From assembly GCA_963719945.1 (NCBI GenBank), contig CAVRDX010000004.1, positions 96,001 through 160,000 on the forward strand: a stretch of DNA of 64,000 nt, read 5' to 3'. This stretch comes from an uncultured Thermoplasmata archaeon. GTDB taxonomy: Archaea > Thermoplasmatota > Thermoplasmata > UBA10834. This document shows positions 1 to 55,480 of the stretch, one piece after another. A program made the position numbers and the translations under genes. Each line of letters opens with the position of its first letter. The first letter of the stretch is position 1. The notes below the pieces were generated by a model. That model saw only the letters and a list, made by a program, of their open reading frames with translations, had not been told where the DNA came from and did no database searches.

Positions 1-2882
1 TTGTTGGCGAATGACAGCTCATCGAAATCCGGTGTTCCGCCGAGACCGCCGTTGACTACTACCCATATTGTGAAGATCCCGATGCTGTTCGGGATCCAAC
101 CAACATCAACGGTTACCTGGCTGTTCGGTGTTAGAGTCGAAATCATAGTAGAATTCAGAAGGGTTGCCGTCGCCACATCTGTACCTAGCAAGAACTCAAC
201 TAGAGCATCTTCTGCAATGGCATCACCGGTGTTCTCGATCACCGCGAAGATTGTGCATGAAGCATTGTACACGACATACGATGGCTCAGTCCAGATATAA
301 CCAGTCATTACGCTGAGATCTGGGAGTATGACAGTGGACATCCTCAGCACTGCGAAGGTAGCATTCTCCGTCAGGGGCTCGGTGTATGGCTTGACACCGA
401 TAGATATCGTCTCATCCGAGAAATGCAGGACTCCGTTACTCAAGTAAGTAGAGTTGATCTTGTAGTTGCCGATGAAGGTTGAGCCATCCGATGTCATTAT
501 TGTTCCCAGGGAATTGATCCTTGCTATTCCAGATTCATTGCTGACTGCGCTCGACCAGTATGTATTGTTCACGAAGAACCATGCCGAGACGGTCGCTCCA
601 GACAGCGCGTTGCTTCCGCCATCCAGAACAGTCACGTGAATCCATCTGTAGATCAATGCTTCTGCGTCTTCCGTTACTACTATTGATGGAACGCTGGAGT
701 TCGTAAATTCTCCCAGTGCATGACCAGATAGTACTGGTGCCTGCAGAAGTGTGGAATCAACGACTACGATTCTGGCTGATGAATCCCATGAAGTAGTTAT
801 CGTACCATCGAAGACCGTGTCTCTGAGAACCACGAGTGCATCATCCATCGCGACTATGTTGACACCGTTCAGAGTTGACCCTGTTACTTCGAGCGTCCCC
901 TCACCCTTCACTATGAGGTCAATCGCGAGTTCGCTGTTGACCATAGAGTCCTCGATCACCAGGTTTGCTGTTCCATCTACATAGACGGTTCGCTCGTTCG
1001 CTGTTGATTGGACCAATTCAAAGACCGCATTCCTCAATGTGAGAGTCCCATCAGATGCCACGATGACATCGCCAGCATGATAGTAGCTCATATTCTCGAT
1101 GGTTAGATCTGGCGGAACCACCAGCCACTTGGATGGATCTGGGCTCTCCGCAGATATACCTTGGATATCTACCGTAATATCAAACTGCTGATCTGCAGAA
1201 GTCATTGCGGGATAGGCCGGGAACGAAAAGGTCTCTGTGGAAGTATGTGGCAGCGTATCAATAATAATACTGCCATTAATTGCATATGATCCTACAAAGA
1301 CTGAGTTGCCTGACCCACTACTTGTTATCATATCTGTGAGATAGGGGACTAATGCTAATCCACCAGTCTTTGTCACAAGGTAGCTCTCTGAAGTTTCACC
1401 CATGTAGTTCAGAACCTCGATGGGAGGAGTCTCGCTCAATCCATCCTCAGTGAAGTACAGGGCGGTTTCTCCCTCGAGCTCAGTGGTACCTGTGAATGTG
1501 GCACTGATAGTTGCGCCTGGGATCGGCACACCATATTCATCTCCAATTGTGACGCTCAACCATCGATAGATGTATGCGTCTCCTCCAACTGTGAACATCA
1601 ACCAGAGTCTGTCAAACTCCACCGAACCTGTCCCAGCAGCACCATTGTTAATAAATCGAATATCGGTGTCCAGTACGTCTCCAACTGTGGGAAGAGATGT
1701 TATTGGGAGTTCGTAGTACCATGTTCCAGATGGATTGGACAAAGAAGGTGTGATCCCAGTAGAAGCATAGCTTCCACCATCGGGAGCCCATTGGATTGAA
1801 TTGGTGCCTACGTATGTCGGTGAGACAGAATAACTTGCGACCAGAGTGATAGAACTCACTTCTAATGAAGCGCTCATCGGGGTTGTATCCCAAGTATCCA
1901 TAGCAAGGGTTTCCTGGGCTTCCACTTCATATGTCGAACCATCGAGGGTCGCTAGATTTGCGATATTCTGACCAGTAGTATCTGCCACACCTTTAGTCAA
2001 GGGACTTGCAGGTGCCGTATTTTCACCATCGGATGCAATGGCAGTCGAACGTGACGCATATGATCCAGAATATTCATCGAAGGTACAGCCATAGAGATAT
2101 GCATGCGACTTTTCGCTCAAGACTATCATATTATGAGAGGCCAAATCGGCTACGGTAAGATTGGGGTTGAAGTCAACGCTGATGTAGCTGTTGACTGCCA
2201 ACAGGGTCGATTCTCCACTCAGTGTGAGGTTGCTGGCGGCAAGACCTAGGGAAGGATATTCGGGAAGATTCGTGATCTCGGAGTCGAACATCATCATTGA
2301 ACCGTCAATGACTGAGATCGCCGCCCCGTCATCGGCGGAATCGATCGCGATAGTCGGAGATCCTGAGAGATACAGGGATATATCCTCTGCAGGTAGCGGC
2401 TCGATGGTACTGTCATATAGTATGAGCTCGCCACCGTTCTGTACCGTGATCGTGCCTGGGAAACTGAAAAGCGACTTCTCCGAAGCTACGAGAGTTCCTC
2501 CATCGATGTTTACATCTAGGAACGGCCACGGATCGATCTGGTCCAGGTAGGTGGTGAGTGTGCCATGATCAAGAGTCATGGTTCCACCAGTAGTGACTGT
2601 TACCGTACGTTGAACACCCGAGTTGCTGATCACCAGCAAAGCAGCGTTCCTTATAATCAGCTCCCCACCACTGACGAGAACATCACCATCTACAGGCTGG
2701 TTGACATTCTCGACTGTGTATGTGCCGGCAGTTACAATCAGGTCACCGATTGGTGTCTGTGCAGCGGTAGGCGAGGGATTCGACATTACGAATAACCCCG
2801 CGAAGGCCGACAGCACGAATGTGGCGACAATCAATGCGCTCAGAGATTTGTTGGCCTGAAGAGGGCCAGCTCTGTGTTCCAT
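1..2882 (-). CDS. Large secreted cell-surface/S-layer-like protein with beta-rich repeats and a CARDB-like domain; partial, runs off the left edge
   Basis: Not in the ORF track because there is no stop in the window. My translation from ATG 2882 reads MEHRAGPLQANKSLSALIVATFVLSAFAGLFVM (signal peptide-like), and I saw no in-frame stop. It is Thr/Ser/Val-rich. The region near the edge reads LPDLSV...AVIENTGDAIAEDALVEF...DELSFANN, which is CARDB-like. Confidence 0.8.
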   Translation of the reverse strand, partial: MEHRAGPLQANKSLSALIVATFVLSAFAGLFVMSNPSPTAAQTPIGDLIVTAGTYTVENVNQPVDGDVLVSGGELIIRNAALLVISNSGVQRTVTVTTGGTMTLDHGTLTTYLDQIDPWPFLDVNIDGGTLVASEKSLFSFPGTITVQNGGELILYDSTIEPLPAEDISLYLSGSPTIAIDSADDGAAISVIDGSMMMFDSEITNLPEYPSLGLAASNLTLSGESTLLAVNSYISVDFNPNLTVADLASHNMIVLSEKSHAYLYGCTFDEYSGSYASRSTAIASDGENTAPASPLTKGVADTTGQNIANLATLDGSTYEVEAQETLAMDTWDTTPMSASLEVSSITLVASYSVSPTYVGTNSIQWAPDGGSYASTGITPSLSNPSGTWYYELPITSLPTVGDVLDTDIRFINNGAAGTGSVEFDRLWLMFTVGGDAYIYRWLSVTIGDEYGVPIPGATISATFTGTTELEGETALYFTEDGLSETPPIEVLNYMGETSESYLVTKTGGLALVPYLTDMITSSGSGNSVFVGSYAINGSIIIDTLPHTSTETFSFPAYPAMTSADQQFDITVDIQGISAESPDPSKWLVVPPDLTIENMSYYHAGDVIVASDGTLTLRNAVFELVQSTANERTVYVDGTANLVIEDSMVNSELAIDLIVKGEGTLEVTGSTLNGVNIVAMDDALVVLRDTVFDGTITTSWDSSARIVVVDSTLLQAPVLSGHALGEFTNSSVPSIVVTEDAEALIYRWIHVTVLDGGSNALSGATVSAWFFVNNTYWSSAVSNESGIARINSLGTIMTSDGSTFIGNYKINSTYLSNGVLHFSDETISIGVKPYTEPLTENATFAVLRMSTVILPDLSVMTGYIWTEPSYVVYNASCTIFAVIENTGDAIAEDALVEFLLGTDVATATLLNSTMISTLTPNSQVTVDVGWIPNSIGIFTIWVVVNGGLGGTPDFDELSFAN

Positions 2883-2928
2883 AAGTTCACCCACCCAGAT
2901 GCTGGGTATTGCGAATCAAAGTAAGCAG

Positions 2929-4119: not shown

Positions 4120-4833
4120 TCAAGTGCTGAGCAACGGACCCAGCACCTGCATTCCGGATTTGTTGACTTCGATGGCGTGTTTCTCCATGCTGTGCTCCGC
4201 AGCTCTCATCTTCTCGACCTGCAGGTATCTCACCAGCTTACCCCTCTGGCGGTCAAGGCCCAGCATCACGATGCCGTCTGCGAGAAAGCCTTCGTTTCCG
4301 AGAAGCTGCGATTCACCAGTCAACGACCGTTCCATGATTATGAATGAAGTGAGGTTGTTGTCTCTGAGCATCTTGAAGAAGTAGAACATCTTCTTCCTCA
4401 TGTCCTCAGCGTTCTCCATCAGGGAGTAGAGCGCGCCTAACGAATCGAGGACGAATATCGAGAACTTGTCTCCGTGAGTCCTCCTGAAACGCTGTATCAT
4501 CTTCTCTATGAAGAGTACATAATCCGTCTGTGCCGAATCGCCGATGACCTCATCGATCTGATCGATCTCCCTGAGGTCAGTCATATCCGATATCTGCATC
4601 TTTGCGGAGAGTTTCACGCCCATGCTCTCCATGTTCTTCAGGTGACTGTCGACCGTCTCTTCGAGGGTGGCGTATAGGCCGAACTCGTTCTTGTCCCTCA
4701 GGTAGTGCGACATCAGGGAATAGCAGAAGCTCGTCTTCATCGATCCCGGGGGACCCGTGACGAGTATGACTTTGGGTCTCTCGATGTCGTTCTTGAAAAC
4801 CTTTTCCAAACCTGGTATCGAGTCTCTAAACAA
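4120..4833 (-). CDS. KaiC-like (RecA superfamily) ATPase
   Basis: IPGLE N-terminus, variant Walker A GPPGSMKT, TLEE, Walker B FVLDS, LADGIV, QVEKMR. TTG start with an AGGAGG RBS. Confidence 0.85.
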   Translation of the reverse strand: MFRDSIPGLEKVFKNDIERPKVILVTGPPGSMKTSFCYSLMSHYLRDKNEFGLYATLEETVDSHLKNMESMGVKLSAKMQISDMTDLREIDQIDEVIGDSAQTDYVLFIEKMIQRFRRTHGDKFSIFVLDSLGALYSLMENAEDMRKKMFYFFKMLRDNNLTSFIIMERSLTGESQLLGNEGFLADGIVMLGLDRQRGKLVRYLQVEKMRAAEHSMEKHAIEVNKSGMQVLGPLLST

Positions 4834-12100: not shown

Positions 12101-12204
12101 TGGAGCCACTGGAGGGTCTCGAACCCCCGGCCTGCAGTTTACGAAACTGCCGCTCTCTAGCGGCACCTGCATGGTCGCAGGCGCAACCGCTGAGCTACAG
12201 TGGC
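12101..12204 (-). tRNA. tRNA-Thr(CGT) with a 29-nt non-canonical intron at position 20/21 (intron 12157-12185); CCA encoded
   Basis: Acceptor GCCACTG/CAGTGGC, D stem GCTC/GAGC, anticodon arm GCAGT-TTCGTAA-ACTGC, T arm GGGGG-TTCGAGA-CCCTC, U73 then CCA. The D-loop insert folds as a BHB: AGCG/CGCT helix, GTT and AGA bulges, and a GCGCCTGC/GCAGGTGC intron stem. Confidence 0.95.
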
Positions 12205-12339: not shown

Positions 12340-14481
12340 ATGGTTAGCGATCTCCGAATTCCTGAAGGGATAATTGTCAGGACTGCCAAAGGAGGCCCTG
12401 ATTCGCTGAAGGGCATACTGTCCGACCTGAAACAGTATAGCTTCACTGGTTACCTGAAGGTCACGCTCGAGAAATCCGTGATGAACTCCACGGGTTACAT
12501 CGTAGTGGAATTGGGAGCGCCCGTCATGGCGATCTACGAGTTCGAGAAATCGAAACCCAGGGAGCTGCGGAGGATATACACCGGAGAGAAGTCACTGAGA
12601 TTCATACTCGAGGATTCGCAAGACAAGGGATCCAACATCGAACTCCACAGCCGTGTCCCCAAGGAGGAGTTCGAGCGTAGGTTCCCTGACGCCTATATCG
12701 CTGGAGGAGCCGCCCCCAAACCGACCACTAGGACCCCCCGGGACGAAGCGAAGGTCAAGGAAGAGGTGGAACTCGATCCGTATGTCGAGAAGATTGAGCA
12801 GTGGCGCAGGAAGGGGTACAAGGTAGATACGCTTGAGACGGCGAGGGAGCAGGGAGTCCAGGAGATCTCGAAGGAACTTACAGGTTTCGAGCGCGACACG
12901 AACAAGCTCAGGCAGTTCGAGACGATCCTGAACAACTTCCCGATACTGGGGCTCGAGCCGGAGATCGCGGAGATAAGGACCAAACTGAACGATCCCACTC
13001 GAATCGCTGAGATAGAATCGGATATCGAATTCCTGCAGGAGAAGATCCGCCGGAAGATACAGAAGAGGAAGGCGGAAGAGGATTCGATAAAGCAGGAGAT
13101 GGAACGGAAGAAGAGGGATGAGAAGGCGTCGGACGTGTACGACCTGATCCTCAAGTACCAGACGACGCCCGAGGGTGAGGAGGCCGTGGAAGCCGTGAAG
13201 TGCCCCATCTGCGGCGGAGAGCTGGAAGATGGACAGTGCAGCAAGTGCGAGAAGGAGCAGAAGTTCACCAAGACATTCCCGACAGAGATGAGGTTCGACA
13301 ATTTCGTGATAGGCCCTGGCTCGAAGTTCTCGGCAGCGACCGCAGTCGCTGTAGCTGAGAATCTAGGCAAGGCATACAATCCGCTCCTGATATTCGGTGC
13401 AACTGGCCTGGGAAAGACGCATCTTCTATCAGCCATCGGAAACCACATACTGAACAAGAACAGTGGATTGACCGCCCTATACGTGCCAGCCGACAAGCTG
13501 GTCGATGCCGTTGAGCACAGTACGACTCCTGACGCCATCAGGATGTTGAGGGAGGAACTGAAACGTGCCGAACTCCTGCTTGTCGACGACATGCAGTTCC
13601 TCGCCGCCAATGAACAAGCTCAGGGTGAGATGGTCCACATCATCGATTCGCTCATCGACTCTGGAAAGCAGGTCGTGCTCGCTAGTGACAGACTGCCTAC
13701 ACAGATTCCGGGCTTCAGCGACAGACTGAATGCCAGAATCCAGAAGGGGTTGACCGTCGATCTGCAGCCGCCGGACGAGAGCACCAGGATCAAGCTCGTC
13801 AGGGTGAAGGCGCATGAGAAGAAGTTGAAGCTCAGCGACGAGATAGTCAAGTACATCGCCGAAAAGGTCACCCAGAATGTTCGCGAGATAGAGAGCACTC
13901 TGAACAAGGTCGTTGCGTTCTCCACCATAATGAAGATGGAAATCGACATGACCCTCGTCTCGGACATACTCAAGCCGCTCGCTCCCGTGCAGGAGACCAG
14001 GAAGGAGATCATGAAGGAGGTCAATGTTCAACCTGGCCATTGCTACCTGATAGAGGAGGAGAAACCGACCTACAGCAATGTCTTGCTGGGGCGGATGATG
14101 GCCGAGAACTATAGAGGGCTCATAATAACGAGGATGAACCCAAAGAGAATAAGAGATGATTTCGAAAAGGACCCTCGAATACTCTGGCTTACCGACAAGG
14201 ATAGTTCGATGGAGAAGACCATCCCGCCATCCCTGGAGATGATAATCCACAAGATCCAGGAATTCATTTCAGAGGAGGGGAACGGCATGGTCGTCCTCGA
14301 TGGCATACAATATCTCATCAGCAGCACCAATTTCGATTCGGTGCTCAGGTTCCTGAGGAGCATAATCGATGAGATGTCAGAATCGAAATGCATATTTGCG
14401 GTATCGATTAGCCCTGAAACCATGAAGGAGCAGGAGATATCGATAATGGAGAGGGAGATGGAGGTCCTGAACCTGACCTGA
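12340..14481 (+). CDS. Multidomain protein: PATAN/DUF2226-like domain, coiled coil, Zn ribbon, DnaA-type AAA+ domain and DUF835
   Basis: True start taken as ATG 12340 because the ORF-track extension overlaps the tRNA. Motifs: FTGYLKVT..GYIVVELG; CPICG..CSKC; FDNFVIG..YNPLLIFGATGLGKTHLL..LLLVDDMQFL..ASDR..RLNARIQKGL..NVREIES; C-terminal CYLIEEEKP..GLIITRMNP..ILWLT..VVLDGIQYLI. Confidence 0.88.
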   Translation: MVSDLRIPEGIIVRTAKGGPDSLKGILSDLKQYSFTGYLKVTLEKSVMNSTGYIVVELGAPVMAIYEFEKSKPRELRRIYTGEKSLRFILEDSQDKGSNIELHSRVPKEEFERRFPDAYIAGGAAPKPTTRTPRDEAKVKEEVELDPYVEKIEQWRRKGYKVDTLETAREQGVQEISKELTGFERDTNKLRQFETILNNFPILGLEPEIAEIRTKLNDPTRIAEIESDIEFLQEKIRRKIQKRKAEEDSIKQEMERKKRDEKASDVYDLILKYQTTPEGEEAVEAVKCPICGGELEDGQCSKCEKEQKFTKTFPTEMRFDNFVIGPGSKFSAATAVAVAENLGKAYNPLLIFGATGLGKTHLLSAIGNHILNKNSGLTALYVPADKLVDAVEHSTTPDAIRMLREELKRAELLLVDDMQFLAANEQAQGEMVHIIDSLIDSGKQVVLASDRLPTQIPGFSDRLNARIQKGLTVDLQPPDESTRIKLVRVKAHEKKLKLSDEIVKYIAEKVTQNVREIESTLNKVVAFSTIMKMEIDMTLVSDILKPLAPVQETRKEIMKEVNVQPGHCYLIEEEKPTYSNVLLGRMMAENYRGLIITRMNPKRIRDDFEKDPRILWLTDKDSSMEKTIPPSLEMIIHKIQEFISEEGNGMVVLDGIQYLISSTNFDSVLRFLRSIIDEMSESKCIFAVSISPETMKEQEISIMEREMEVLNLT

Positions 14482-14496: not shown

Positions 14497-16227
14497 TCAC
14501 ATGGTCTTCTTCGCCATCTCTTTGAATTCCCTCAACTCTTTGAGCGCCTGCGAATAGTTCTTCGATTTCGTCAGGTTGGTCACCGACTTCAATATCGTCA
14601 ACATAGGCGTTATGTTCACGTTCTTTATCTTCGCGTCCACTAGCAGGTGACGAGCGCTCTTGATCTCCTCGGTGAGACGCTCTGGGATGGCTGCATTGAG
14701 ACGCTCGTTCGTCTGCTTGATGAGCATCTCGGCCTTATCGAAGTCCCTGGAATCGAACGCTTTGTTGGCTTCCACGAAGGATGCGCGAGCCTCTCGTGTA
14801 TCGAGTATGAGCATCTCGCAATCCGCAAGCAATGATTTCAAAGAATTGAGCCTCTTCTTCGCTTCGTTGTATCTGCCCGTGATCGGAAGGAGTTCGTTCG
14901 AGACTTTATCAGAGTAGATGAACGCGGCCTCCGCATCCCCACTGGATTTGGCCTTCTCCATCTCGCTTATGTAGGTCATCGATCGGGATACTTCGCCACC
15001 GAGCTCCTTAGCCACTTGGACCTCTTCCCTCAGCTGGTCGAGGTCATCTGTAAGCCTGGCATCTATTGTGTCCATGAGGATCGCGCGAGCCGTGTTCACG
15101 AGCTCAAGCGCTTTCTCTAGCTGCCTATCTCGCCCAGCTGCGGCTGCGTCATCGATGAGCTGCTTGCTCTCAGATATCTCAATCTCCTTCTGCATGGCAA
15201 GAGACAGGAGCGGTTTCATCTCGGCCACCATCCTCGCGAGCTCCTTCCCCTTGTCCTTCGAATCTGCCCTCATGGGGGTGATCTTCGGGGCTGGGGCCGC
15301 CTTGGTTATCTCCGGTTCAGGTATCCTTGGCCTAGGCTCTTCCTTTAGATGACGGAATGGTTCTGCCTCGACGGGCTCTTGCTTCGATTGAGGTTCTGGT
15401 TCCGTTACAGGTTCGGGTTCCGCCTCATCTTTGGCCTCGTCCTTCTTGCGCTTCTTCAGCCAGCCGAATGGTGAACGGCCCTTCTTCTCCTTGGGGGCCT
15501 TCTCTGGCTCTTCAACCTCATCAGCAGATGGTTCCTCTGCCTCCTCGGGTTCGACCTCGACCTCCGGCTTCATGGCCGGGACTTCTCTGACAGTCGGGAC
15601 TTCGGCGACTGGAGGCTCGATCTCTGGCTGAGTCGACGCTTGCTCAGTCGCCTCCTCCTCGGACTCGACGAACATGGCGCCACAACCGGGGCAGGTTTTG
15701 GCATCGACATTGACAAGCGTGTTACATGCAGGGCACTGGAATACTTCTGTGCCTTCGTCCGAGAAGATGACACCGCAACTCGAACAGGAGGATGCGGTCA
15801 TGCTCACCTTTGCACCGCACTCAGGACATGAGAATTGGTCTTCTTGGACGGTTTCGACCATCGGTATCTCGGATGTAGTCTCATCCTCGACAGGTGCCGA
15901 TTCCTCTGTGTCTGGCCTGACATCAGATGTGGATCGCGAGAACAGGGAAGCGGCGGTCGCAGCGGATTCATCCGAGACTTCTTCCTTCGGAGTCTCGGCC
16001 ACCTTGGGCTCACCGCGAGGGGGCGATATGACTTCGCGAACAATCGCATCGATCGATTTCTTTGGAGCCGGAGCGCTAGGCGTAGGCTGAACAGTCTGCT
16101 CAACAGGCTCATCGACTTCCATATCGAATATGGACAAATCTGTCCCACAGAACCCGCACTTCTTCGATCCGGGCTGGAGTGGAGAATCGCAGATGGGGCA
16201 AAGTTTGTCCCCGCTAGAACTTGGCAA
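14497..16227 (-). CDS. Protein with three double zinc ribbons, acidic/Pro-rich linkers and C-terminal alpha-helical repeats
   Basis: CPIC..CGFC, CPEC..CSSC, CPAC..CPGC. Helical repeats such as AKELGGEVSRS and AKIKNVNITPM. TTG start after AGGAGG. Confidence 0.8.
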   Translation of the reverse strand: MPSSSGDKLCPICDSPLQPGSKKCGFCGTDLSIFDMEVDEPVEQTVQPTPSAPAPKKSIDAIVREVISPPRGEPKVAETPKEEVSDESAATAASLFSRSTSDVRPDTEESAPVEDETTSEIPMVETVQEDQFSCPECGAKVSMTASSCSSCGVIFSDEGTEVFQCPACNTLVNVDAKTCPGCGAMFVESEEEATEQASTQPEIEPPVAEVPTVREVPAMKPEVEVEPEEAEEPSADEVEEPEKAPKEKKGRSPFGWLKKRKKDEAKDEAEPEPVTEPEPQSKQEPVEAEPFRHLKEEPRPRIPEPEITKAAPAPKITPMRADSKDKGKELARMVAEMKPLLSLAMQKEIEISESKQLIDDAAAAGRDRQLEKALELVNTARAILMDTIDARLTDDLDQLREEVQVAKELGGEVSRSMTYISEMEKAKSSGDAEAAFIYSDKVSNELLPITGRYNEAKKRLNSLKSLLADCEMLILDTREARASFVEANKAFDSRDFDKAEMLIKQTNERLNAAIPERLTEEIKSARHLLVDAKIKNVNITPMLTILKSVTNLTKSKNYSQALKELREFKEMAKKTM

Positions 16228-27577: not shown

Positions 27578-27874
27578 TCAGATCATCCTCGCCATCTGAG
27601 CATGGGGGACGCACCCTATCATGATTATGTTGTCCTTGTCTACGAACCCGTTGTCCACCGCTATGCCCACAGTCCGCTCACCTACGAGGTTCGCTATGGT
27701 AGCTAGGCGGAGCCAGTTCAGCAGGACTTCGTCCTCCACCACGTCCTCCTTGTAGAACGATTCCGCGACTTCGATCCTGAGCTTGCCTGAACTGAACGTC
27801 TTGCCCACGATATCGGCATCGCATGCGGCCAACAGACGTTCGGTGCCCTTCGTGTGTATCTTGATGCATATCAT
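27578..27874 (-). CDS. DUF424-family protein
   Basis: LLAACDADIVGK, FY, ATIANLVG, VPHAQ. Confidence 0.85.
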   Translation of the reverse strand: MICIKIHTKGTERLLAACDADIVGKTFSSGKLRIEVAESFYKEDVVEDEVLLNWLRLATIANLVGERTVGIAVDNGFVDKDNIIMIGCVPHAQMARMI

Positions 27875-29994
27875 CCGATCCGCTCCTCGGTCGCAAGCTT
27901 GAAGTATCCTGGCTGTGGGGAATATATCTCCCCAGCATCGCTCAGCCGTTTGAGAAGCGCACGCACCTGCTCCTCGCTTATGTTGTCGGAACTCGCCTTC
28001 TGGATGAGCTCGTCCATGCTGACGCCTCTGCGTTCATCGGACAGCTGTTGCACGAGGTTCTTCAGGACGTAGATCTTCTCCCTCTGGCTCCTGCTGGTCC
28101 CTGTCGCGAGGATGTCTATGTCCATCCGCCCGCCCTCACTGGCGACCTTATTCAGATAATACTGGACGATCCCGATGGCCCTGCTCGCGTCTTCCGCGCT
28201 GACGACAGGCATCAGGCTAGCCCTCGCGCTCGCCTCGGACATACGGATGAGGGCCTCGAGCTGCCTGGCAGTGATGGGGACGGACGCTCCCTCGCCTTCT
28301 CCGAGCTTCCTTATCGACACATAGTAGTTCTCTATCGTCCGCATCGCCTCGTCACTCATGATAGGCGTGATGCGCTTGCTGAATGCCACATACTTCCTGA
28401 GGAAATCGCGTTCCATCGTCGGAACCAGCACATCGCTCTCACTAATTATCTGGTCCCTGTCGATCCCGGGTATAATCTCGGAAGAATCATGGAGCATCAC
28501 CTCTCCTCGCCTGTGGACAGTGAGTATGTGTTTCGCGATCCTCATATCCATATCCGAATTCGGGCGGTCGGTCATTGTGAATATCGCATCGAACCTGGAA
28601 AGCAATGCTGGAGGGAGGTCGATCTGTTCCGCAATGCTCCTGTTCTCATCGAACCTGCCGTACTTCGGGTTCGCAGCCCCCAGGACTGCGCATCGCGACT
28701 GGAGGGTTGCCGTTATCCCGGCCTTGGCAACGGAGATAGTGCCCTGCTCAAGACTCTCGTGGATGCTGGAGCGGTCCTGATCGCTCATCTTGTCCAACTC
28801 ATCAATGCAGGCGAGACCTTTGTCCGCGATCACCAGGGCGCCGGCTTCCAGAGTCCATCTGCCCTCCCCGAACTCGTCTTTGACCGCCGCCGCGGTAAGA
28901 CCCGCTGCGGACGACGCCTTGCCAGAAGTGTATATGCCCCTAGGGGCGAGCATTGCCATGTATCGCAATATCTGGGATTTCGCAGTGCCAGGGTCGCCGA
29001 TCATGACGATGTGTATGTCGCCTCTGATACGGGTACCGTCATCGAGCGTCTTGGAGACTCCGCCGAAAAGCTGCAGCGCGAGTGCCTCTTTCTCCTGCTT
29101 GTAACCGTATATCGTGGGGGAAATCGAGGACACCACTTTATCCAGCACATCCGGAGATGCTGCGAACTCCCGAATCATCTCCTCGTCCTCCGGGGTTATC
29201 ACGATCTCCTCGTACTCGTGCTCCTCGTATTCCACCGAGTTGACGTCTATGCTGATGTCAAAGAGGGTGGACTTGATCTGGGCGCCCTTCTGCTGGCTCT
29301 TCAGGATGCCGTTGATTATGATCCTATCACCAGGAGACAGCTTACCTGCGATGTCGTCTTCGATGTAGCCAACAAGACGCTCTGGTTGGGCGCCTCCTCT
29401 CAAACCCTCAGGAGGTTCCTGTATCTCGATCTTCTGAGTATCAACGAAGGTCGAAGGATCTGTGACCAATCGGAACTTGGTGGACCCTGACCCCCTCCCA
29501 CAACCGCCATCATCCTTTGGACATTCGAGGGGTTCCTGGAACTGCATCCCATCCTGATCTACAGATATCTGGAAGCCGCAACGAGCACATTCGAATTCGG
29601 CAATCGTAACGCGCGGCCGGACCTCGGTGGCCTTCCTTACCAGCCCTTCGACGGAGACAAATGTGCCGAGATGCTTCGCCCGCAGCTTCCTTACCTCCAC
29701 CCTGGAATCGCGCGGAAGACCCTTGATCCTGAAGTGCAAGAACGGGTTTGTCAGAGCGTGTGACACCATCCTCTTTATCGCGTCCTCGGCTGCGCCAAGG
29801 GACCGCGCAGGATTGATGAGTGTGTAATTGGCAAGGTCGGGGTCGAACTTCTCAATGGAGGAAAAGTCAACGTACATGCTTCGCACGTCTGGATACAGGT
29901 CGGCGATCGTGGAGACCTGGTGCCTCCGCTCCTGATCTCCGAGAAACTCTTCCCATATTGCTACAAGATCCTCAGGTGTGTAATCCTTAGGCAT
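27871..29994 (-). CDS. mcm: MCM replicative helicase
   Basis: CARC..C Zn motif, QKIEIQE, GDPGTAKSQ, GLTAA, LEAGALV, IDELDKM, AANP, ALLSRFD, TARQLE. No intein seen. Confidence 0.97.
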   Translation of the reverse strand: MPKDYTPEDLVAIWEEFLGDQERRHQVSTIADLYPDVRSMYVDFSSIEKFDPDLANYTLINPARSLGAAEDAIKRMVSHALTNPFLHFRIKGLPRDSRVEVRKLRAKHLGTFVSVEGLVRKATEVRPRVTIAEFECARCGFQISVDQDGMQFQEPLECPKDDGGCGRGSGSTKFRLVTDPSTFVDTQKIEIQEPPEGLRGGAQPERLVGYIEDDIAGKLSPGDRIIINGILKSQQKGAQIKSTLFDISIDVNSVEYEEHEYEEIVITPEDEEMIREFAASPDVLDKVVSSISPTIYGYKQEKEALALQLFGGVSKTLDDGTRIRGDIHIVMIGDPGTAKSQILRYMAMLAPRGIYTSGKASSAAGLTAAAVKDEFGEGRWTLEAGALVIADKGLACIDELDKMSDQDRSSIHESLEQGTISVAKAGITATLQSRCAVLGAANPKYGRFDENRSIAEQIDLPPALLSRFDAIFTMTDRPNSDMDMRIAKHILTVHRRGEVMLHDSSEIIPGIDRDQIISESDVLVPTMERDFLRKYVAFSKRITPIMSDEAMRTIENYYVSIRKLGEGEGASVPITARQLEALIRMSEASARASLMPVVSAEDASRAIGIVQYYLNKVASEGGRMDIDILATGTSRSQREKIYVLKNLVQQLSDERRGVSMDELIQKASSDNISEEQVRALLKRLSDAGEIYSPQPGYFKLATEERIG

Positions 29995-31662: not shown

Positions 31663-32178
31663 CTAACCGGTGAATGATGTGTGGGTCATTTCGCTCGATG
31701 TTGGCGAGTACATCAAGGTCACCGTGTAGGTGCTTGTGCTCGTGAACGAACCTGCGGTCATGGTGAGTGAGTCACCATAGTTCGCATATCCGTTACCTGC
31801 CAGATCGGTTATGTTCAGCCAGACTACGAGAGTTCCAAGAGTCTTGGATGCGTAGTTGTGCTTGATAACCTCTCCGCCATCGAGATCTTCGGTAGTGATG
31901 TTAATCCAGTTCACGTTGTTCGATCCATCGGTCAACAGAACGCTAACGTCACTCCAGAGAGTATCTATGCTCACAGCTGCCAAAGACAACTTGACCCCAT
32001 TGGGGACGGTAGACTTTGTCAACTGAGTGGTCGGTGTTTGCTGGCTAGTACCTCCGAATCCCAGTACCATCACGTACAAGACGGCTGCTAGGACGACGGT
32101 GATTGCGACCATCAGAATGGTAGCAATGACCGGAGACACTGCTTCGGCATCCTTGCGGATTGCCCAAATTCGCTTCAT
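31663..32178 (-). CDS. Archaeal type IV pilin (class III signal peptide, DUF1628-like)
   Basis: KDAEA/VSPVIATILMVAITVVLAAVLY. GGAGG RBS; BRE-TATA GAAAGCTATATAAA at ~32249-32235. Confidence 0.9.
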   Translation of the reverse strand: MKRIWAIRKDAEAVSPVIATILMVAITVVLAAVLYVMVLGFGGTSQQTPTTQLTKSTVPNGVKLSLAAVSIDTLWSDVSVLLTDGSNNVNWINITTEDLDGGEVIKHNYASKTLGTLVVWLNITDLAGNGYANYGDSLTMTAGSFTSTSTYTVTLMYSPTSSEMTHTSFTG

Positions 32179-32440: not shown

Positions 32441-33166
32441 TCAACAGGTTCGGATACCCGTTTGGTCGAACGCACACGGCAGGATCCCCACAAGACCTGG
32501 CCTGTTTCGGACCTTCTGCACGACGATGTACTTCTTGAACTCCTGCCCGATCTTCTCCCGGTCTAGTTCGAATATCACGTCTGCGAGGTCCTCGATGCTG
32601 CTCTGTATGCGGGACTCGTGAACGCCTTTGAGCATCGTCATCAACGTGACGCTTTCCGAGTGCTGCGTGTGTGCCTTTATCGTGCGCATAGCCATGAGCA
32701 CCTCCGAACTGTCATAGTTCTCCAGGAAGAAATCGAGTGAGTTGATGACCACTCTGAAAGGCGGGGTGATCTTGGATATCTCATACGCAAGGAATGTCAG
32801 GAAGTTCTCCTCCTTGCCAGCGTTCTTGTCGCGAATCAGCTGGATATCCTCGAGCGTTATGCCTTCCTGCCTGAATTTGCTGATCTCCAGTTTCTTTGCG
32901 AGCACGTTCTCGTAGTACTTTGTACCGATATTGACTATGTTGATATCCGTTCTCCACTCGTGCTCGCGCATTATGTTCATAACGTCTTCGTCTCTCTCCG
33001 TCGACGTGAAGTAGGTCACTGGCTCCTCTCCGGAGGACGCGAACTGCTTTGCGAAGAATTCCGCTCCCGAGCCAGGGTTCCCTACGACCAGGACGGTCGA
33101 TCCCTTCTGGACGCCTCCGCCCAGGTGGTCATTGAGGGCGGGTATTCCCATGCTCGTGAGGTTCAT
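32441..33166 (-). CDS. KaiC-like ATPase with a degenerate Walker A
   Basis: MGIPALNDHLGGG, GNPGSGAE (no Lys/Thr), VVINS, LADVIFEL, QKVR. Confidence 0.82.
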   Translation of the reverse strand: MNLTSMGIPALNDHLGGGVQKGSTVLVVGNPGSGAEFFAKQFASSGEEPVTYFTSTERDEDVMNIMREHEWRTDINIVNIGTKYYENVLAKKLEISKFRQEGITLEDIQLIRDKNAGKEENFLTFLAYEISKITPPFRVVINSLDFFLENYDSSEVLMAMRTIKAHTQHSESVTLMTMLKGVHESRIQSSIEDLADVIFELDREKIGQEFKKYIVVQKVRNRPGLVGILPCAFDQTGIRTC

Positions 33167-33167
33167 C

Positions 33168-33758
33168 TCATTCCTCCTGCTTGCCGACTCGTATGCCCTG
33201 GTCGCAAACCAGGTTCACCAGGTTGACAATCTCAGGCGTTGAATGTTCTTCGACGGACAGGATGATCGTATATGCATCCTTCACCCTGAGTCCGGAAACC
33301 AATATGTGAAGGAACTCAGAGAGGATCCAATTGTTGTTGTGGATCGAGAGGGAGTTGATCGAATCGAGCACGACCAGCTTGTTCTTCGATTGAGACATCC
33401 GTATCAGATATTCGACCTTCAACATGATGTTCTCGAGCATCGTAGGGCTCTCGACCAGGGATGCGTGATCGTCCTTCTGCGCAGCCGAGGTCCCCATCAT
33501 TATGTGCGATATGCAGTCGACGAAGTATATGCGAGAGGTATCGATGTCGAGCGCGTCCAATACGCGTTTTATTGCCTCGAACGAGATCGTCGCCGTGACG
33601 TATATCGTATCCATGTCCTTCTTCTTGGCGAAGATGTCGAGCACTCCGCGCATGACCTCGAGATAGCTGTCGACGCTCATTTGCAGCGAGACTGCTGACC
33701 CTGGGGAGAGTTCGGACAGTTGCGCGGCTATCCCCTGTGGGGTATTAGCGTCACTCAT
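33168..33758 (-). CDS. Inactive KaiC/RecA-fold accessory protein
   Basis: IYVT, IYFVDCIS, SPTMLENI, LVVLDSINSLSIHN, LVCD. No Walker A. Confidence 0.7.
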   Translation of the reverse strand: MSDANTPQGIAAQLSELSPGSAVSLQMSVDSYLEVMRGVLDIFAKKKDMDTIYVTATISFEAIKRVLDALDIDTSRIYFVDCISHIMMGTSAAQKDDHASLVESPTMLENIMLKVEYLIRMSQSKNKLVVLDSINSLSIHNNNWILSEFLHILVSGLRVKDAYTIILSVEEHSTPEIVNLVNLVCDQGIRVGKQEE

Positions 33759-34510
33759 GTTCCAGCACTACCTCCTTTCAAGAGCGGCACGAGAAGCACC
33801 CCGACCGGCGTAAGATCCAGCACGTACTTCGCTCGGCTATGCATGGTCCCACGCATCTTGATCACCTGCAACGTGCGCAGGAGGTCACCTCTCCGCTCCA
33901 TATTCGCCATGAGCATGATGCCGTCGGCGATGGCTTCTTCGACGCCGAACGTGGAATATACATTAGAATGAGCGGCCACCTCGCTAACGAGTATCGATGT
34001 GCACTCAAGATCCGATAGCGTCTTGCTCAATTTGAGAACGAAATCACGTATCTTCTCCGGCGTCTTGAGCTTGTAACATATAGAAGTGATGGAATCTATG
34101 ACCAAACGCTTGGTCTTCAGCTCCCTGACCAGGCTGCTTATCGACGCGACGAGGAGGTCGATCTCCTCCATCGACAGTTCCGCCTTCGTCATGCCGAGCC
34201 GCTCATACATTGCGGGTAGGTCCACGAAGACCAGCTTACCGGATTTCAACAGGTTCCTATCAAAGAATCTGTATGGTATGATGTTCGCCAGAAGCTTCTC
34301 GGAGTTCTCCGTGACAGATAAGAACAACGAATTCTCGTTGTTCAGAGCGCCGTGAATGAGAAACTCAAGTGCGAGAGATGTCTTGCCAGTACCGCAGCTA
34401 CCCGTGAGAAGGACCGTGTTGTCTCGGGGTATGCCACCATACAACACGGTGTCAAGGCCGTCGATTCCAGTCACGCAGCGGACGCGATCACCAGTTCTCG
34501 GCTCCATCAT
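33755..34510 (-). CDS. KaiC-like ATPase
   Basis: TGIDGLD..GGIP, GSCGTGKT, SVTE, RLVIDS, EEAIADG, VIKMRGT. Confidence 0.9.
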   Translation of the reverse strand: MMEPRTGDRVRCVTGIDGLDTVLYGGIPRDNTVLLTGSCGTGKTSLALEFLIHGALNNENSLFLSVTENSEKLLANIIPYRFFDRNLLKSGKLVFVDLPAMYERLGMTKAELSMEEIDLLVASISSLVRELKTKRLVIDSITSICYKLKTPEKIRDFVLKLSKTLSDLECTSILVSEVAAHSNVYSTFGVEEAIADGIMLMANMERRGDLLRTLQVIKMRGTMHSRAKYVLDLTPVGVLLVPLLKGGSAGT

Positions 34511-52572: not shown

Positions 52573-53835
52573 TCAGGAAAGGGGAGGGGGCTGAATCGAA
52601 ATCGTCCCATTTGATGCTCTCAACCAACCAATGATCTTCTCGAAATCATCGATATTACATCTCACACTCAATCTAATATGATCGTCTTCGACATCACTGA
52701 TGACGTCAGATAGAAGATGAAGTCTGGAAATCAGACTGTAACTCTCATCTACAATCGGAAGTGATGCTTCGATAAGATGATTCCTTCCCTGCATCTCACG
52801 TATGCGTTCTCTTATGAGATCCAATCCATCTTTGGTGAAAGAAGATACGAATATCAATTGTCTTGATCCTATGATTCCTTGAATTATCTTATGTGATTCT
52901 TCCATCTTCTCTGAAGATATCTTATCTATCTTTGATCCCACCGCAACGATGGGAGTGTCGCCTACTTTTGGAAGAAGTATATCAAAAGCAGTCTTCATCT
53001 TCATCTCAAGAATATCAGAATCATCACTTGAATCGAATACGAACAGAACAAGATCAGAATAGAATATCTCTTCAAGAGTTGAGTTGAAAGCATTGATGAG
53101 GTCAGGTGGGAGATCTCTGATGAATCCGACTGTATCTATCATCAGTGCATGTCCTTTCAACCCAGGGATTCTTCTTGTCGTTGTCGATAGAGATGAGAAT
53201 AGTTCAGAGCTGACTTCGACATCCGAGCTGCACAATGCATTCATCAAAGCGGATTTACCAGCATTTGTATATCCTGCCAATGAAACAAGAAGATAACCTT
53301 GTTCATGACGTCTTGATCTCTTCACTTCTCTACTCTGTGATATATCCATCAATTTCTTCTCTAGACGTTTGATGTGAGTTCTTGCATGTTCATAATACAC
53401 ATCAGTTGCATATGCTCCACCAGATAGGAACCCTGGTCGTTCACCGCTCTTGGCCTTGTGTATCCATTCGCGCAAGAATGGTTGTTCGTATCTCAATCTG
53501 GCCAGTTGCACTTGTGTGATTGCTTCTGGTGTCTGTGCATGTTCTGAGAATATTCTGAGGATCACTCCGACTCGATCAATACACTCTTTCTGGAATTTCA
53601 TCTCAAGAGAGTGATGTTGTGATGGTTTCAGACGATCATTGATAATAATAATATCAGGATCACATTCTTTGATTTCTTCAGCAATCTCATCTATCTTCCC
53701 AGGACCGAAATAGCTCGCACTGTGTGGGATGTCACGTTTCTGAACGAATTCCTTCACGATTTCGTATTTCAGAGTGTGAAGCAGTGAATACAATTCTGAT
53801 AGATCCGTTGTTCTTGATAGTACGACTGCACGCAT
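52573..53835 (-). CDS. hflX: GTPase HflX
   Basis: GPGK, IDR..ILRIF..HA, GYTNAGKS, DTVGFI, F.STLEE, SKID. Start at ATG 53835 after GGAGG. Confidence 0.93.
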   Translation of the reverse strand: MRAVVLSRTTDLSELYSLLHTLKYEIVKEFVQKRDIPHSASYFGPGKIDEIAEEIKECDPDIIIINDRLKPSQHHSLEMKFQKECIDRVGVILRIFSEHAQTPEAITQVQLARLRYEQPFLREWIHKAKSGERPGFLSGGAYATDVYYEHARTHIKRLEKKLMDISQSREVKRSRRHEQGYLLVSLAGYTNAGKSALMNALCSSDVEVSSELFSSLSTTTRRIPGLKGHALMIDTVGFIRDLPPDLINAFNSTLEEIFYSDLVLFVFDSSDDSDILEMKMKTAFDILLPKVGDTPIVAVGSKIDKISSEKMEESHKIIQGIIGSRQLIFVSSFTKDGLDLIRERIREMQGRNHLIEASLPIVDESYSLISRLHLLSDVISDVEDDHIRLSVRCNIDDFEKIIGWLRASNGTISIQPPPLS

Positions 53836-53920
53836 TTGAAGTCCTCCATGTAACATAATCGTGAATCATAATGCATTGTATGTCGGAATTCGACCGGAAA
53901 CCAGGGTACATTGACCATAT

Positions 53921-54214
53921 CTTCCAATGGAATATTTCATACTCCATACGGCGATGTCTCCAAGAAACACTTCCATTAGAAATGAAGGGGGGGCCCTATC
54001 TTGATGTATGTGTGTATGCATCCCTCTGTTATCATTCGAAAGCACATTTCACAAGGTTTGCTGGCTAAATCAAAACATGAAAATTTTGGTCCTGCAGAAA
54101 AAATGAGATTTGTGGATAATATTAACACTTAAGTACGGTGCCCCGTATTCCCCAAATCCCACCGTTTCAAGTGGATTCCGAAAACGGATTCCACAGGAAG
54201 CAGCGGGGGTGGGG
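53921..54214. other. Probable replication origin (oriC): ORBs flanking an AT-rich unwinding element upstream of orc1/cdc6
   Basis: CTTCCAATGGAA (53921), CTTCCATTAGAAATGAAGGGGGGG (+, 53970-93), ATCCACTTGAAACGGTGGGATTTGGGG (-, 54176-50), TTCCACAGGAAGCAGCGGGGG (+, 54189). AT-rich segment at ~54065-54135. Confidence 0.8.
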
Positions 54215-54244
54215 AAAGACCTTTTTGGCTTTCGGGGGCTATCG

Positions 54245-55480
54245 ATGCAGGACACCATATTTCAACAGTACATAAGGTCAAAATCCATATTCAAAGGTGA
54301 CAGAGATGTGTTGCGGCCGTCATACATACCCGACGAACTGCCGCACAGAGAGGAGCAGATAGATCAGCTCGCTTCCATCCTTGTCACAGCACTGGAAGGG
54401 CAGAGGCCCTCGAACGTTCTACTGTTCGGCAAGACGGGAACTGGAAAGACCGCCACCATCAAGTATATCGGAAAGGAGATCGAAAAGGCCAGATCAGACC
54501 TCCGCAATGTGCACTTCCTCTACATGAACTGCGAAGTGGTGGATACGCAATACGGGGTTCTGCAGAACATCGGCAACGAGTTCATCGAGGATTTCGAGCA
54601 GAGAATACCATTCACTGGGTGGAGCACGGAGCGCGTCTATAACATACTGAGGGAGAAGATCGATGAGGAAAGACGAGTCATCGTCATCGCCTTGGATGAA
54701 ATCGACAAGCTCGTCTCGAAGAGCGGAGACGATGTGCTGTACCATCTATGCAGGATCAACGACGACCTTAAGAACGCGAAGGTGAGCGTGATCGGCATAT
54801 CCAATGATCTCAAGTTCACCGAATTCCTGGATCCGAGAGTCAAGAGTTCATTGAGCGAGGAGAAGATGGTCTTCCCTCCGTACAACGCCGAGCAGTTGCG
54901 AGACATACTCGGGCAGAGATCCGCATTGGTATTCGAGGAGAACGCCCTGGAACCATCGGTCATACCTCTCTGCGCCGCGCTGGCCGCGCAGGAGCACGGG
55001 GACGCCAGGCGGGCGCTAGACCTGCTGAGGGTCTCGGCTGAGATCGCCGAGAGGAACCATCTGCCCATCGTGAACGATTCGGATGTGACCAAAGCAAAGA
55101 ACAAGATTGAGCTGGACTGCGTCACCGAAGCCATACGTACGCTCCCCCTGCAATCCAAGATGATATTGATGGGCGTTGTGCTGAGTGGGGAGCGTGGATA
55201 TGGTAAGCTGACCACAGGCGACCTTTATGAGACCTACAAGGAGCTCTCACTGTGCACATCAACTGCAGTATTGACCCAACGAAGGGTCACCGATCTTGTG
55301 TCAGAGCTCGATATGCTCGGGCTCGTGCACGCGCGCGTGAAATCCTTCGGTCGCGGTGGCAGGACGAAGGAGATCGAGCTCAGCGTACCACCGCAAGAGG
55401 CTAAGAAATCTCTAGAAGAGGATGAGATTCTCGGTCAGTTGAAGAATTATAAGCTGAGGTATCAGACGACCCTCATGTAA
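54245..55480 (+). CDS. cdc6: Orc1/Cdc6 replication initiator
   Basis: L.PSYIPDELPHRE, GKTGTGKT, LDEID, LDPRVKSSL, FPPY, GDARRA, winged helix with SFGRGGRT. Start at ATG 54245. Confidence 0.97.
   Translation: MQDTIFQQYIRSKSIFKGDRDVLRPSYIPDELPHREEQIDQLASILVTALEGQRPSNVLLFGKTGTGKTATIKYIGKEIEKARSDLRNVHFLYMNCEVVDTQYGVLQNIGNEFIEDFEQRIPFTGWSTERVYNILREKIDEERRVIVIALDEIDKLVSKSGDDVLYHLCRINDDLKNAKVSVIGISNDLKFTEFLDPRVKSSLSEEKMVFPPYNAEQLRDILGQRSALVFEENALEPSVIPLCAALAAQEHGDARRALDLLRVSAEIAERNHLPIVNDSDVTKAKNKIELDCVTEAIRTLPLQSKMILMGVVLSGERGYGKLTTGDLYETYKELSLCTSTAVLTQRRVTDLVSELDMLGLVHARVKSFGRGGRTKEIELSVPPQEAKKSLEEDEILGQLKNYKLRYQTTLM

Follow-up and report, generated by a model that had tools for sequence, protein, structure and literature searches.

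Domain III of DnaA is regarded as a hallmark of the initiation of replication in bacteria, and a two-helix insert is an initiator-specific feature of the DnaA/Orc clade. Single-stranded DNA (ssDNA) is bound by Escherichia coli DnaA through its H/B motifs, V211 and R245 (PMC9198467). In archaea, DUF835 was labelled iKaiC in a census of signalling proteins that includes, for example, REC (receiver)-DUF835 proteins (PMC5847659). The PATAN domain of Synechocystis PixE suffices for output and has both PilB1 and PilC as binding partners (bioRxiv 10.1101/2021.06.11.447907), and the archaellum has a motor ATPase, ArlI, on which the KaiC-like protein ArlH docks (PMC8978795). We analyzed a 64,000-nucleotide (nt) stretch of DNA from an uncultured Thermoplasmata archaeon, here called the window, in which one gene joins a bacterial DnaA-type domain III to a DUF835 domain. 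Positions are those of the window unless they are prefixed by a genome (G) or locus (L) identifier. The gene and the parts of its product, in nt and in amino acids (aa), are as follows.

12340..14481, plus strand: whole coding sequence (P0001), an open reading frame (ORF) of 713 aa plus stop
12352..12699 (aa 5-120), plus strand: PATAN/DUF2226-like alpha/beta domain, from an AlphaFold model, an ESM Atlas fold match and weak hidden Markov model (HMM) matches
12778..13164 (aa 147-275, with a long helix at 219-275), plus strand: helical region, from the full-length model
13195..13257 (C288, C291, C300, C303), plus strand: C4 zinc ribbon, from its CxxC...CxxC motif
13285..13974 (aa 316-545), plus strand: bacterial DnaA-type AAA+ domain III with lid, from Bac_DnaA and 8BTG
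13396-13419 (aa 353-360), plus strand: Walker A, GATGLGKT, by motif check, as for the next five
aa 415-419, plus strand: Walker B, VDDMQ
aa 423-430, plus strand: ANEQAQGE, the stretch after Walker B
aa 448-451, plus strand: sensor I, ASDR
aa 461-470, plus strand: box VII, DRLNARIQKG
aa 513-516, plus strand: sensor II, NVRE
14017..14475 (aa 560-712), plus strand: DUF835 domain, of the alpha/beta P-loop-NTPase type without a Walker A loop, from Pfam and the model

The product is a five-part protein, in which a PATAN/DUF2226-like domain, a coiled coil, a C4 zinc ribbon, DnaA domain III and a C-terminal DUF835 follow one another. The likely start codon is ATG 12340, and homologs start at the same residues, MV(S/T)DLRIPEG. 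A longer in-frame alternative, TTG 12052, overlaps a minus-strand tRNA gene at 12104-12204 and is unlikely, because the extended frame crosses that opposite-strand gene. The base composition of the gene resembles that of its surroundings. A full-length AlphaFold model reached a predicted local distance difference test (pLDDT) score of 83 and a predicted template modelling (pTM) score of 0.43, the low pTM being expected for beads on a string. An earlier reading made by a model from the sequence alone, which we call the original prediction, had seen here a DnaA module repurposed as an ATP-dependent oligomerization switch that feeds a KaiC network.

The AAA+ module matched Pfam Bac_DnaA (PF00308) with 164 bits (E 3e-48), aa 316-474 aligning with profile positions 4-162 of 162, and its best solved structure was Bacillus subtilis DnaA (8BTG; E 1e-57), to which it aligned without a gap throughout domain III. 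The gapless stretch includes the initiator-specific two-helix insert at aa 384-408. The insert sits between strand 2 and Walker B; in the model it forms two helices (384-393 and 397-408), preceded by strand 379-383 and followed by strand 412-416. Every motif string quoted in the original prediction as a sign of an intact domain III was found at its stated position. The key AAA+ residues are K359 in Walker A, D416/D417 in Walker B, D450/R451 in sensor I, R462, the arginine finger R466 and R515 in sensor II. K359, D416, D417, D450, R451, R466 and R515 were invariant in all 121 close homologs and R462 was kept in 120 of the 121, a pattern which indicates that purifying selection acts on the ATPase residues.

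The other domains of DnaA were not found. Pfam gave no match to domain IV (Bac_DnaA_C, PF08299) at E≤1 in the 713-aa protein, and a domain-IV probe taken from a true DnaA (P0150) returned zero matches among proteins with DUF835 or the PATAN-like N-terminal domain. The C-terminus scores as DUF835 and has no helix-turn-helix match, so that the proposed replacement of domain IV by DUF835 stands. A probe for domain I had no match either. The DnaA equivalog model TIGR00362 scored 270 bits against a cut-off of 343.9, and only positions 54-345 of its 437 were aligned; where the alignment begins, at position 54, it covers only the coiled coil. Pfam found neither Cdc6_C nor Cdc6_lid in the 713-aa protein, which places it outside the Orc1/Cdc6 family. 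The window's genome has one Bac_DnaA match only. By sequence, the AAA+ module belongs to the DnaA domain III family and the whole protein is neither DnaA nor Hda; against DnaA stand the missing domains I and IV, the replaced H/B motifs and a model score below the cut-off.

The H/B positions were located by subtracting 181 from the query numbering to give E. coli numbering, an offset that is supported because it reproduces the textbook E. coli residues K178, D235, R285 and R334. We then compared 60 bacterial DnaAs carrying domain IV with the 121 close homologs. Position 392, equivalent to E. coli V211, is I or V in 59 of the 60 bacterial proteins, whereas it is G, E, D or S in every one of the 121 close homologs (E392 here). 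Position 424, equivalent to E. coli K243, is K or R in 60/60 bacterial DnaAs, whereas the close homologs have S, N or D (N424 here). The original prediction had contrasted ANEQAQGE in this protein with NKERSQEE in E. coli. The string is indeed present, but the R245 position alone is not diagnostic; bacteria differ from one another there, B. subtilis DnaA having Q. The losses that are diagnostic are instead at the equivalents of V211 and K243. The ssDNA-contact stretches are retained in most other archaeal DnaA-type modules, almost letter for letter as in bacteria; the G162 form (L009) is an example of a relative that keeps the H/B motifs. The window's clade is therefore a derived form, one that kept the ATP-dependent assembly chemistry and probably gave up ssDNA binding.

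At the C-terminus, DUF835 (PF05763) was matched with 99.5 bits against a gathering threshold of 33.1 (E 1.8e-28), aa 575-707 aligning with profile positions 4-136 of 136, and the domain was also matched in 17 of 17 aligned relatives. Its conserved residues are Y569, E572/E573, R598, W616-L617-T618-D619, D654, R673, D677 and R705/E706, and in the full-length model it shows an alternating strand-helix pattern. No Walker A motif (GxxGxGK[ST]) is present in the domain, the corresponding stretch reading EEEKPTYS. The second half of DUF835 gave weak matches to DUF7504 (13/17 relatives), KaiC (3/17), NACHT and FlaH. KaiC (PF06745) stayed below threshold over DUF835, at E 0.04-0.67, and the weak FlaH match covered aa 632-698 of this protein. 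An hhalign comparison of the DUF835 alignment with five local KaiC proteins found nothing (probability 0.6%). The proposal that DUF835 is an inactive KaiC-like domain thus has in its favour the missing Walker A, the strand-helix pattern, the iKaiC label, the weak matches and Atlas feature leads at 0.81, and against it the profile comparison; we consider such a domain likely.

DUF835 is strongly expanded in the window's genome (G000), with 13 ORFs in 1.78 Mb, several of them inside 1300-1600-aa proteins. In the same genome, KaiC-like ORFs number about 8 and T2SSE ATPases 5.

The N-terminal domain, modelled alone, reached a pLDDT of 89. This model matched ESM Atlas clusters named DUF2226 or PatA_N (= PATAN) with template modelling (TM) scores of 0.71-0.78, both sides of the comparison being predicted models. 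The best-detailed superposition was on a DUF2226 cluster (TM 0.76, root-mean-square deviation 2.1 A, 113 residues), and the PatA_N clusters gave TM 0.71-0.73. Among solved structures, Foldseek found nothing in the PDB at E≤0.001, and a wide VIA-align search reached a best Z of 5.6. In sequence, DUF2226 (PF09987) scored 14.5 bits for the 713-aa protein, below its gathering threshold of 22; of 30 family members examined, 13 had weak DUF2226 matches (best E 4e-5) and 2 had DUF4388 (PF14332) matches. The PATAN/DUF2226-like assignment of the original prediction therefore stands at the level of the fold and stays sub-threshold at the level of sequence. After a disordered linker (aa 123-145 in the full-length model) comes the helical region and then the ribbon, whose four cysteines are all retained in 27 of 33 aligned relatives and which gave a weak DZR (double-zinc-ribbon) match. 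The long helix and the four cysteines bear out the predicted order of coiled coil and CxxC-CxxC ribbon.

A word-indexed search returned more than 1700 homologs, and the best 120 of these were all full length, 65-92% identical and equipped with both domains. The named GTDB representatives are all uncultured Thermoplasmata/Thermoplasmatota metagenome-assembled genomes, closed chromosomes among them. A full-length, uninterrupted single copy was present in 48 of 49 genomes of the order, and the genome without a copy is 65% complete. The gene is a core, strongly conserved gene of the whole archaeal order. An assembly chimera, named in advance as a possible refutation, is ruled out by the homologs and by the 48 full-length copies: the fusion is real. 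The homologs carry automatic names, 'DnaA/Hda family protein [Thermoplasmata archaeon]' at NCBI, as had been expected, and 'chromosomal replication initiator protein DnaA' at JGI. In the full-text literature we found no mention of DUF835 together with DnaA, nor of DnaA-like proteins in Thermoplasmata; DUF835 itself came up in a single paper, and no functional description of the fusion was found. The earlier statement that the family lacks a functional description agrees with this, the databases holding automatic names only.

We surveyed architectures by scanning 401 Thermoplasmatota genomes and running Pfam on the matches. Proteins with a PATAN-like domain, the AAA+ module and DUF835 ranged from 610 to 885 aa and were present in several taxonomic classes. 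The survey also yielded a 1225-aa form with HEAT repeats, 1000-1400-aa proteins with a PATAN-like N-terminus and zinc ribbons at the C-terminus, and stand-alone DnaA-type proteins of about 430-470 aa. Domain IV was absent from each of these architectures. In an exhaustive HMMER search with the AAA+ part, typical bacterial DnaAs gave about 40% identity and 185-205 bits. A quick maximum-likelihood tree of AAA+ modules placed most DUF835-fused modules in one group, with 92% support in the Shimodaira-Hasegawa-like approximate likelihood ratio test (SH-aLRT); this tree came from a short search, has an unresolved backbone and a biased bacterial sample, and cannot settle whether there were one or several transfers, or which donor.

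Metagenomic clusters (P0123-P0148 and others), whose source organisms are not known, contain a sizeable set of 570-700-aa proteins with two tandem DnaA-type AAA+ domains, and no domain IV was detected in them with the exception of P0127. Their first modules group with, and in the tree are nested inside, the DUF835-fused modules; their second modules group with the ~430-aa archaeal stand-alone forms.

One positional ortholog has lost the AAA+ part. In genome G305 the gene (L051:9280-10347) encodes 356 aa, consisting of a PATAN-like domain and DUF835 only, without coiled coil, ribbon or AAA+ module. In a tree of DUF835 domains, the G305 protein lies deep within the fusion clade (99% SH-aLRT). 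Because of this nesting, the AAA+ part was secondarily lost in G305, and we rejected an ancestral PATAN-DUF835 protein that later gained an AAA+ insert. The G305 form suggests that the two end domains are the working interface and the AAA+ module is their regulator.

Taken with the other evidence, this leads us to a reading to which we give about an even chance: the protein would be a cytoplasmic, ATP-driven self-assembly switch built on the DnaA oligomerization engine, with a PilB-type motor and/or KaiC-like ATPases as its partners. With ATP bound, protomers would stack through R466, head to tail, and so form an oligomer like that of DnaA, with the coiled coil and ribbon adding avidity or a docking point. 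Stacking would cluster the PATAN and DUF835 modules, which could then engage hexameric partner ATPases, and hydrolysis would reset the assembly. Such a switch fits better than a DnaA-type initiator, as the original prediction had also held, because of the domain anatomy, the missing DnaA-box domain, the intact ATPase with its arginine finger and the presence of normal archaeal initiators. Going by its domains, the protein most likely neither recognizes DnaA boxes nor initiates replication in this archaeon. As partners we favour the PilB-type motor, which belongs to the type IV pilus system encoded nearby, and/or KaiC-like ATPases. The surroundings of the gene are as follows.

3..2894, minus strand: roughly 1600-aa CARDB/zinc-ribbon protein, entering the window from upstream and following a PilB3-type ATPase
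4120..4833, minus strand: KaiC-like ATPase KaiC_237, 237 aa, part of the context in the same conserved block
12104-12204, minus strand: tRNA of ~100 nt, presumably intron-bearing (Rfam 55.6 bits; missed by ARAGORN), 135 nt upstream of the DnaA-DUF835 start
14497..16227, minus strand: convergent neighbour, a 576-aa zinc-ribbon protein, adjacent in orthologous loci down to 35% identity
17795-23179, minus strand: Lhr-type helicase, 1794 aa, with DEAD/ResIII, Helicase_C, WHD_Lhr, DEAD_assoc and an AlkZ-like C-terminus in the precomputed Pfam matches of its homologs
31663-32178, minus strand: archaeal type IV pilin gene, beside the KaiC trio
32441-33166, 33168-33758 and 33755-34510, minus strand: three tandem KaiC-like genes, adjoining the pilin gene
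G000:C4:84138-93932, strand not given: type IV pilus-like locus (L108), just upstream of the window, from extension of the contig, with its T2SSE ATPase at C4:88433-90223 and its PilB3-type ATPase at C4:92193-93932

The pilus-like locus comprises a HhH-KaiC fusion (807 aa), two unknown genes, a T2SSE ATPase, two T2SSF genes and a PilB3-type ATPase, and the pilus operon together with two KaiC genes lies 8-24 kb upstream of the DnaA-DUF835 gene. Close relatives (66-75% identity) have an identical gene order around the gene: giant CARDB/zinc-ribbon protein, coiled-coil zinc-ribbon protein, KaiC, gyrA, gyrB, thiC, Yip1-type membrane protein, DnaA-DUF835 gene, convergent zinc-ribbon protein, adenosine kinase, OGG and the 1794-aa Lhr-type helicase. 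Four genomes that belong to other families of the class share this order, their orthologs being just 35-38% identical, and conservation of the entire ~35-kb block extends to five genomes of the class. The convergent zinc-ribbon protein may be associated with the DnaA-DUF835 protein.

The pilus motor is indicated from another side by genome G021, in which a DnaA-type AAA+ module is fused to the N-terminus of a PilB3/T2SSE-type ATPase (L046:9532-11994, P0157). This fusion lies in the orthologous pilus operon, flanked by a homolog of the unknown-360 gene and both T2SSF genes. Three independent pointers from three modules therefore lead to a T2SSE-type motor: the G021 fusion for the AAA+ module and the PATAN-PilB1/PilC and ArlH-ArlI precedents for the two end domains. 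The PATAN precedent, the G021 fusion and the pilus locus in the block point to the pilus motor at least as strongly as other clues point to KaiC. A complex prediction for the PATAN domain with the PilB3-type ATPase scored 0.00; it was run without controls and carries no weight either way.

Several points weigh against a switch of this kind. Gyrase, thiC, adenosine kinase, OGG and Lhr are likewise part of the conserved block, and the proximity of the pilus and KaiC genes may therefore be plain synteny; because housekeeping genes are included, conservation of the block is weak functional evidence. Around more distant DnaA-DUF835 loci, the nearest 9 kb or so are free of pilus and KaiC genes. The case for a KaiC-like DUF835 depends on weak HMM matches and a literature label, and the profile-profile comparison was negative. 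Since most other archaeal modules keep the ssDNA contacts, nucleic acid may have played a part in the ancestral function. There is also the pairing of DUF835 with Orc1/Cdc6, and a link to replication can be dismissed less firmly than the original prediction had it.

The window does contain the four KaiC-like genes that had been counted there, and these belong to the most durable of the alternatives, in which DUF835 acts as an inactive KaiC subunit that docks on active KaiC hexamers, with no pilus role. We regard this as rather unlikely. The iKaiC label (PMC5847659) and the weak KaiC, FlaH and DUF7504 matches are in keeping with it, as are the numbers of candidate partners, with about eight KaiC-like genes and 13 DUF835 genes in the genome, and the retention of KaiC_237 in the block in distant orthologs. 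However, the profile-profile probability of 0.6% between DUF835 and the local KaiC proteins tells against it, KaiC_237 is parted from the DnaA-DUF835 gene by gyrA, gyrB, thiC and a membrane protein and is not its operon partner, and the KaiC trio of the window stands beside a type IV pilin gene, which again points to the pilus system. The claim that the protein feeds a KaiC network was accordingly not upheld, the KaiC genes lying in a ~35-kb block that is conserved wholesale and the comparison of profiles having found nothing.

The second alternative concerns replication. Of the genome's two Orc1/Cdc6 genes, one lies in the window, as does an MCM gene, in agreement with the normal Orc1/Cdc6 that had been noted. 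The genes in question are these.

27871-29994, minus strand: MCM gene, about 13 kb from the DnaA-type gene
54110-55480, plus strand: main Orc1/Cdc6 gene, about 40 kb from the DnaA-type gene
G000:C4:217705-219500, outside the window: second Orc1/Cdc6 paralog (386 aa) and, next after it in the same orientation, a stand-alone DUF835 gene (189 aa); L003:821-1390 and L003:1468-2628, minus strand

We saw no clear origin-box repeats at the orc1 gene of the window; one 17-nt imperfect inverted repeat lies upstream of it (53736-53752 and 53885-53901). The Orc1/Cdc6-DUF835 pair was found in 29 of 30 orthologous loci (L078-L107), spanning about 11 families of the class and DUF835 identities down to 40%, and the 30th locus is interrupted by a contig end. 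In the DUF835 tree the DnaA-fused domains form one clade (97%) and the Orc1-linked domains another (82%), and the two are not sisters. DUF835 therefore became associated with initiator-clade AAA+ proteins twice, independently.

On this evidence the protein could be a replication- or DNA-linked regulator that modulates Orc1/Cdc6 or coats ssDNA, with DUF835 coupling to initiator-type AAA+ proteins. The pair kept in 29 of the 30 loci and the twofold tie of DUF835 to initiator-clade proteins both speak for such a regulator, as do the position of the gene among gyrB, gyrA, OGG and the Lhr helicase and the H/B motifs that most other archaeal DnaA-type modules retain. Yet all 121 close homologs have lost the equivalents of V211 and K243, the protein has neither domain IV nor domain I, the Orc1-linked and DnaA-fused DUF835 domains belong to separate, non-sister clades, the nearest orc1 gene is about 40 kb away and the gyrase adjacency is limited to the class. 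We therefore hold a regulator of this kind to be unlikely. A bolder form of the idea, in which DUF835 is the dedicated partner module of initiator-clade AAA+ proteins in Thermoplasmatota and the DnaA-DUF835 protein helps control chromosome replication, seems to us improbable; if true, it would mean that an archaeon uses a bacterial initiator core alongside its own Orc1/Cdc6 system. Equally unreported is the alternative that a DnaA-type initiator engine may regulate a type IV pilus motor.

A decaying dnaA relic, an assembly chimera or a mobile or defence element without a conserved cellular role is scarcely credible, although recent transfer could be suspected when an archaeon carries a module of bacterial type, and PADLOC gave faint matches (best E 2e-5). 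The homologs number more than 1700 and are conserved over their full length at 65-92% identity, a single copy is present in 48 of the order's 49 genomes and its position in the conserved block is fixed, the catalytic residues are invariant, and the base composition is like that of the surroundings. The PADLOC matches were short and below any useful score, and the defence reading was dropped.

Some further observations concern the block itself. A bacterial transfer of a dnaA-gyrB-gyrA block is unsupported, gyrase genes being neighbours only in the class-level block and not at distant DnaA-DUF835 loci. The gyrA frames of genomes G314 and G383 are 1248 and 1353 aa long, against 860 aa in the window, and the gyrB frame of G383 is 847 aa long, against 645 aa (L038:15270-19013, L040:596-4654 and L040:4539-7079). 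The extra length lies inside or ahead of the aligned part and may represent inteins. Promoter and terminator scans used a bacterial consensus and are uninformative for an archaeal host.

The clade-specific loss of ssDNA motifs, the PilB3 fusion in the pilus operon, the loss of the AAA+ module in G305 and the Orc1/Cdc6-DUF835 pair are new here. DnaA-related modules have spread through Thermoplasmatota as DUF835 fusions, very large multidomain proteins, ~430-aa stand-alone proteins and a PilB-ATPase fusion. They offer a natural experiment in which a DnaA oligomerization engine has been freed from origin DNA, the window's clade having dropped the ssDNA contacts that sister forms keep. They also give a first handle on DUF835, a domain with 13 copies in this genome and a scant literature, through its recurrent association with AAA+ proteins of the initiator type (Orc1/Cdc6 and DnaA). 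Both aspects are of interest for research on AAA+ initiators and on archaeal signalling.

Among known systems, bacterial DnaA (TIGR00362, PF00308; 8BTG/8BV3 from B. subtilis, 2Z4R from T. maritima and 1L8Q/2HCB/3R8F from A. aeolicus) shares domain III with this protein in full and without gaps, including Walker A/B, sensor I, the box VII arginine finger, sensor II, the lid and the two-helix insert, at about 40% identity. Unlike DnaA, however, the protein has no domain I or IV, its H/B positions are replaced, its TIGR00362 score is below the cut-off and its archaeal host has Orc1/Cdc6 and MCM; its flanks are a PATAN-like domain, a coiled coil, a zinc ribbon and DUF835. It resembles Hda/HdaA (TIGR03420; 5X06, 3BOS) in being a DnaA-family AAA+ protein without domain IV, Hda being a regulator and not an initiator, and it has a weak Hda_lid match. 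It differs from Hda in scoring 103.9 bits with TIGR03420 against a cut-off of 194.8 and in matching the PDB entry of Hda (5X06) at E 5e-9 but DnaA at E 1e-57. It also has no evident N-terminal clamp-binding peptide, is a much larger protein and carries unrelated flanking domains.

The end domains have relatives of their own. Like archaeal DUF835 (PF05763) proteins, the protein has a full-length, above-threshold DUF835 without Walker A, but unlike those described, such as REC-DUF835, it is fused to a DnaA-type AAA+ module. It may resemble ArlH/FlaH in having a RecA/KaiC-type domain, ArlH docking on a hexameric ATPase of the T2SSE family and FlaH being weakly matched at aa 632-698; ArlH, however, binds ATP, whereas DUF835 has no P-loop, and the homology is marginal. 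With cyanobacterial PatA-type PATAN regulators (PixE) and archaeal DUF2226 proteins it shares the same predicted N-terminal fold (TM 0.71-0.78). Unlike the PATAN regulators, it is sub-threshold for the domain in Pfam and has no receiver domain, and by analogy with them its N-terminal domain may bind a pilus motor.

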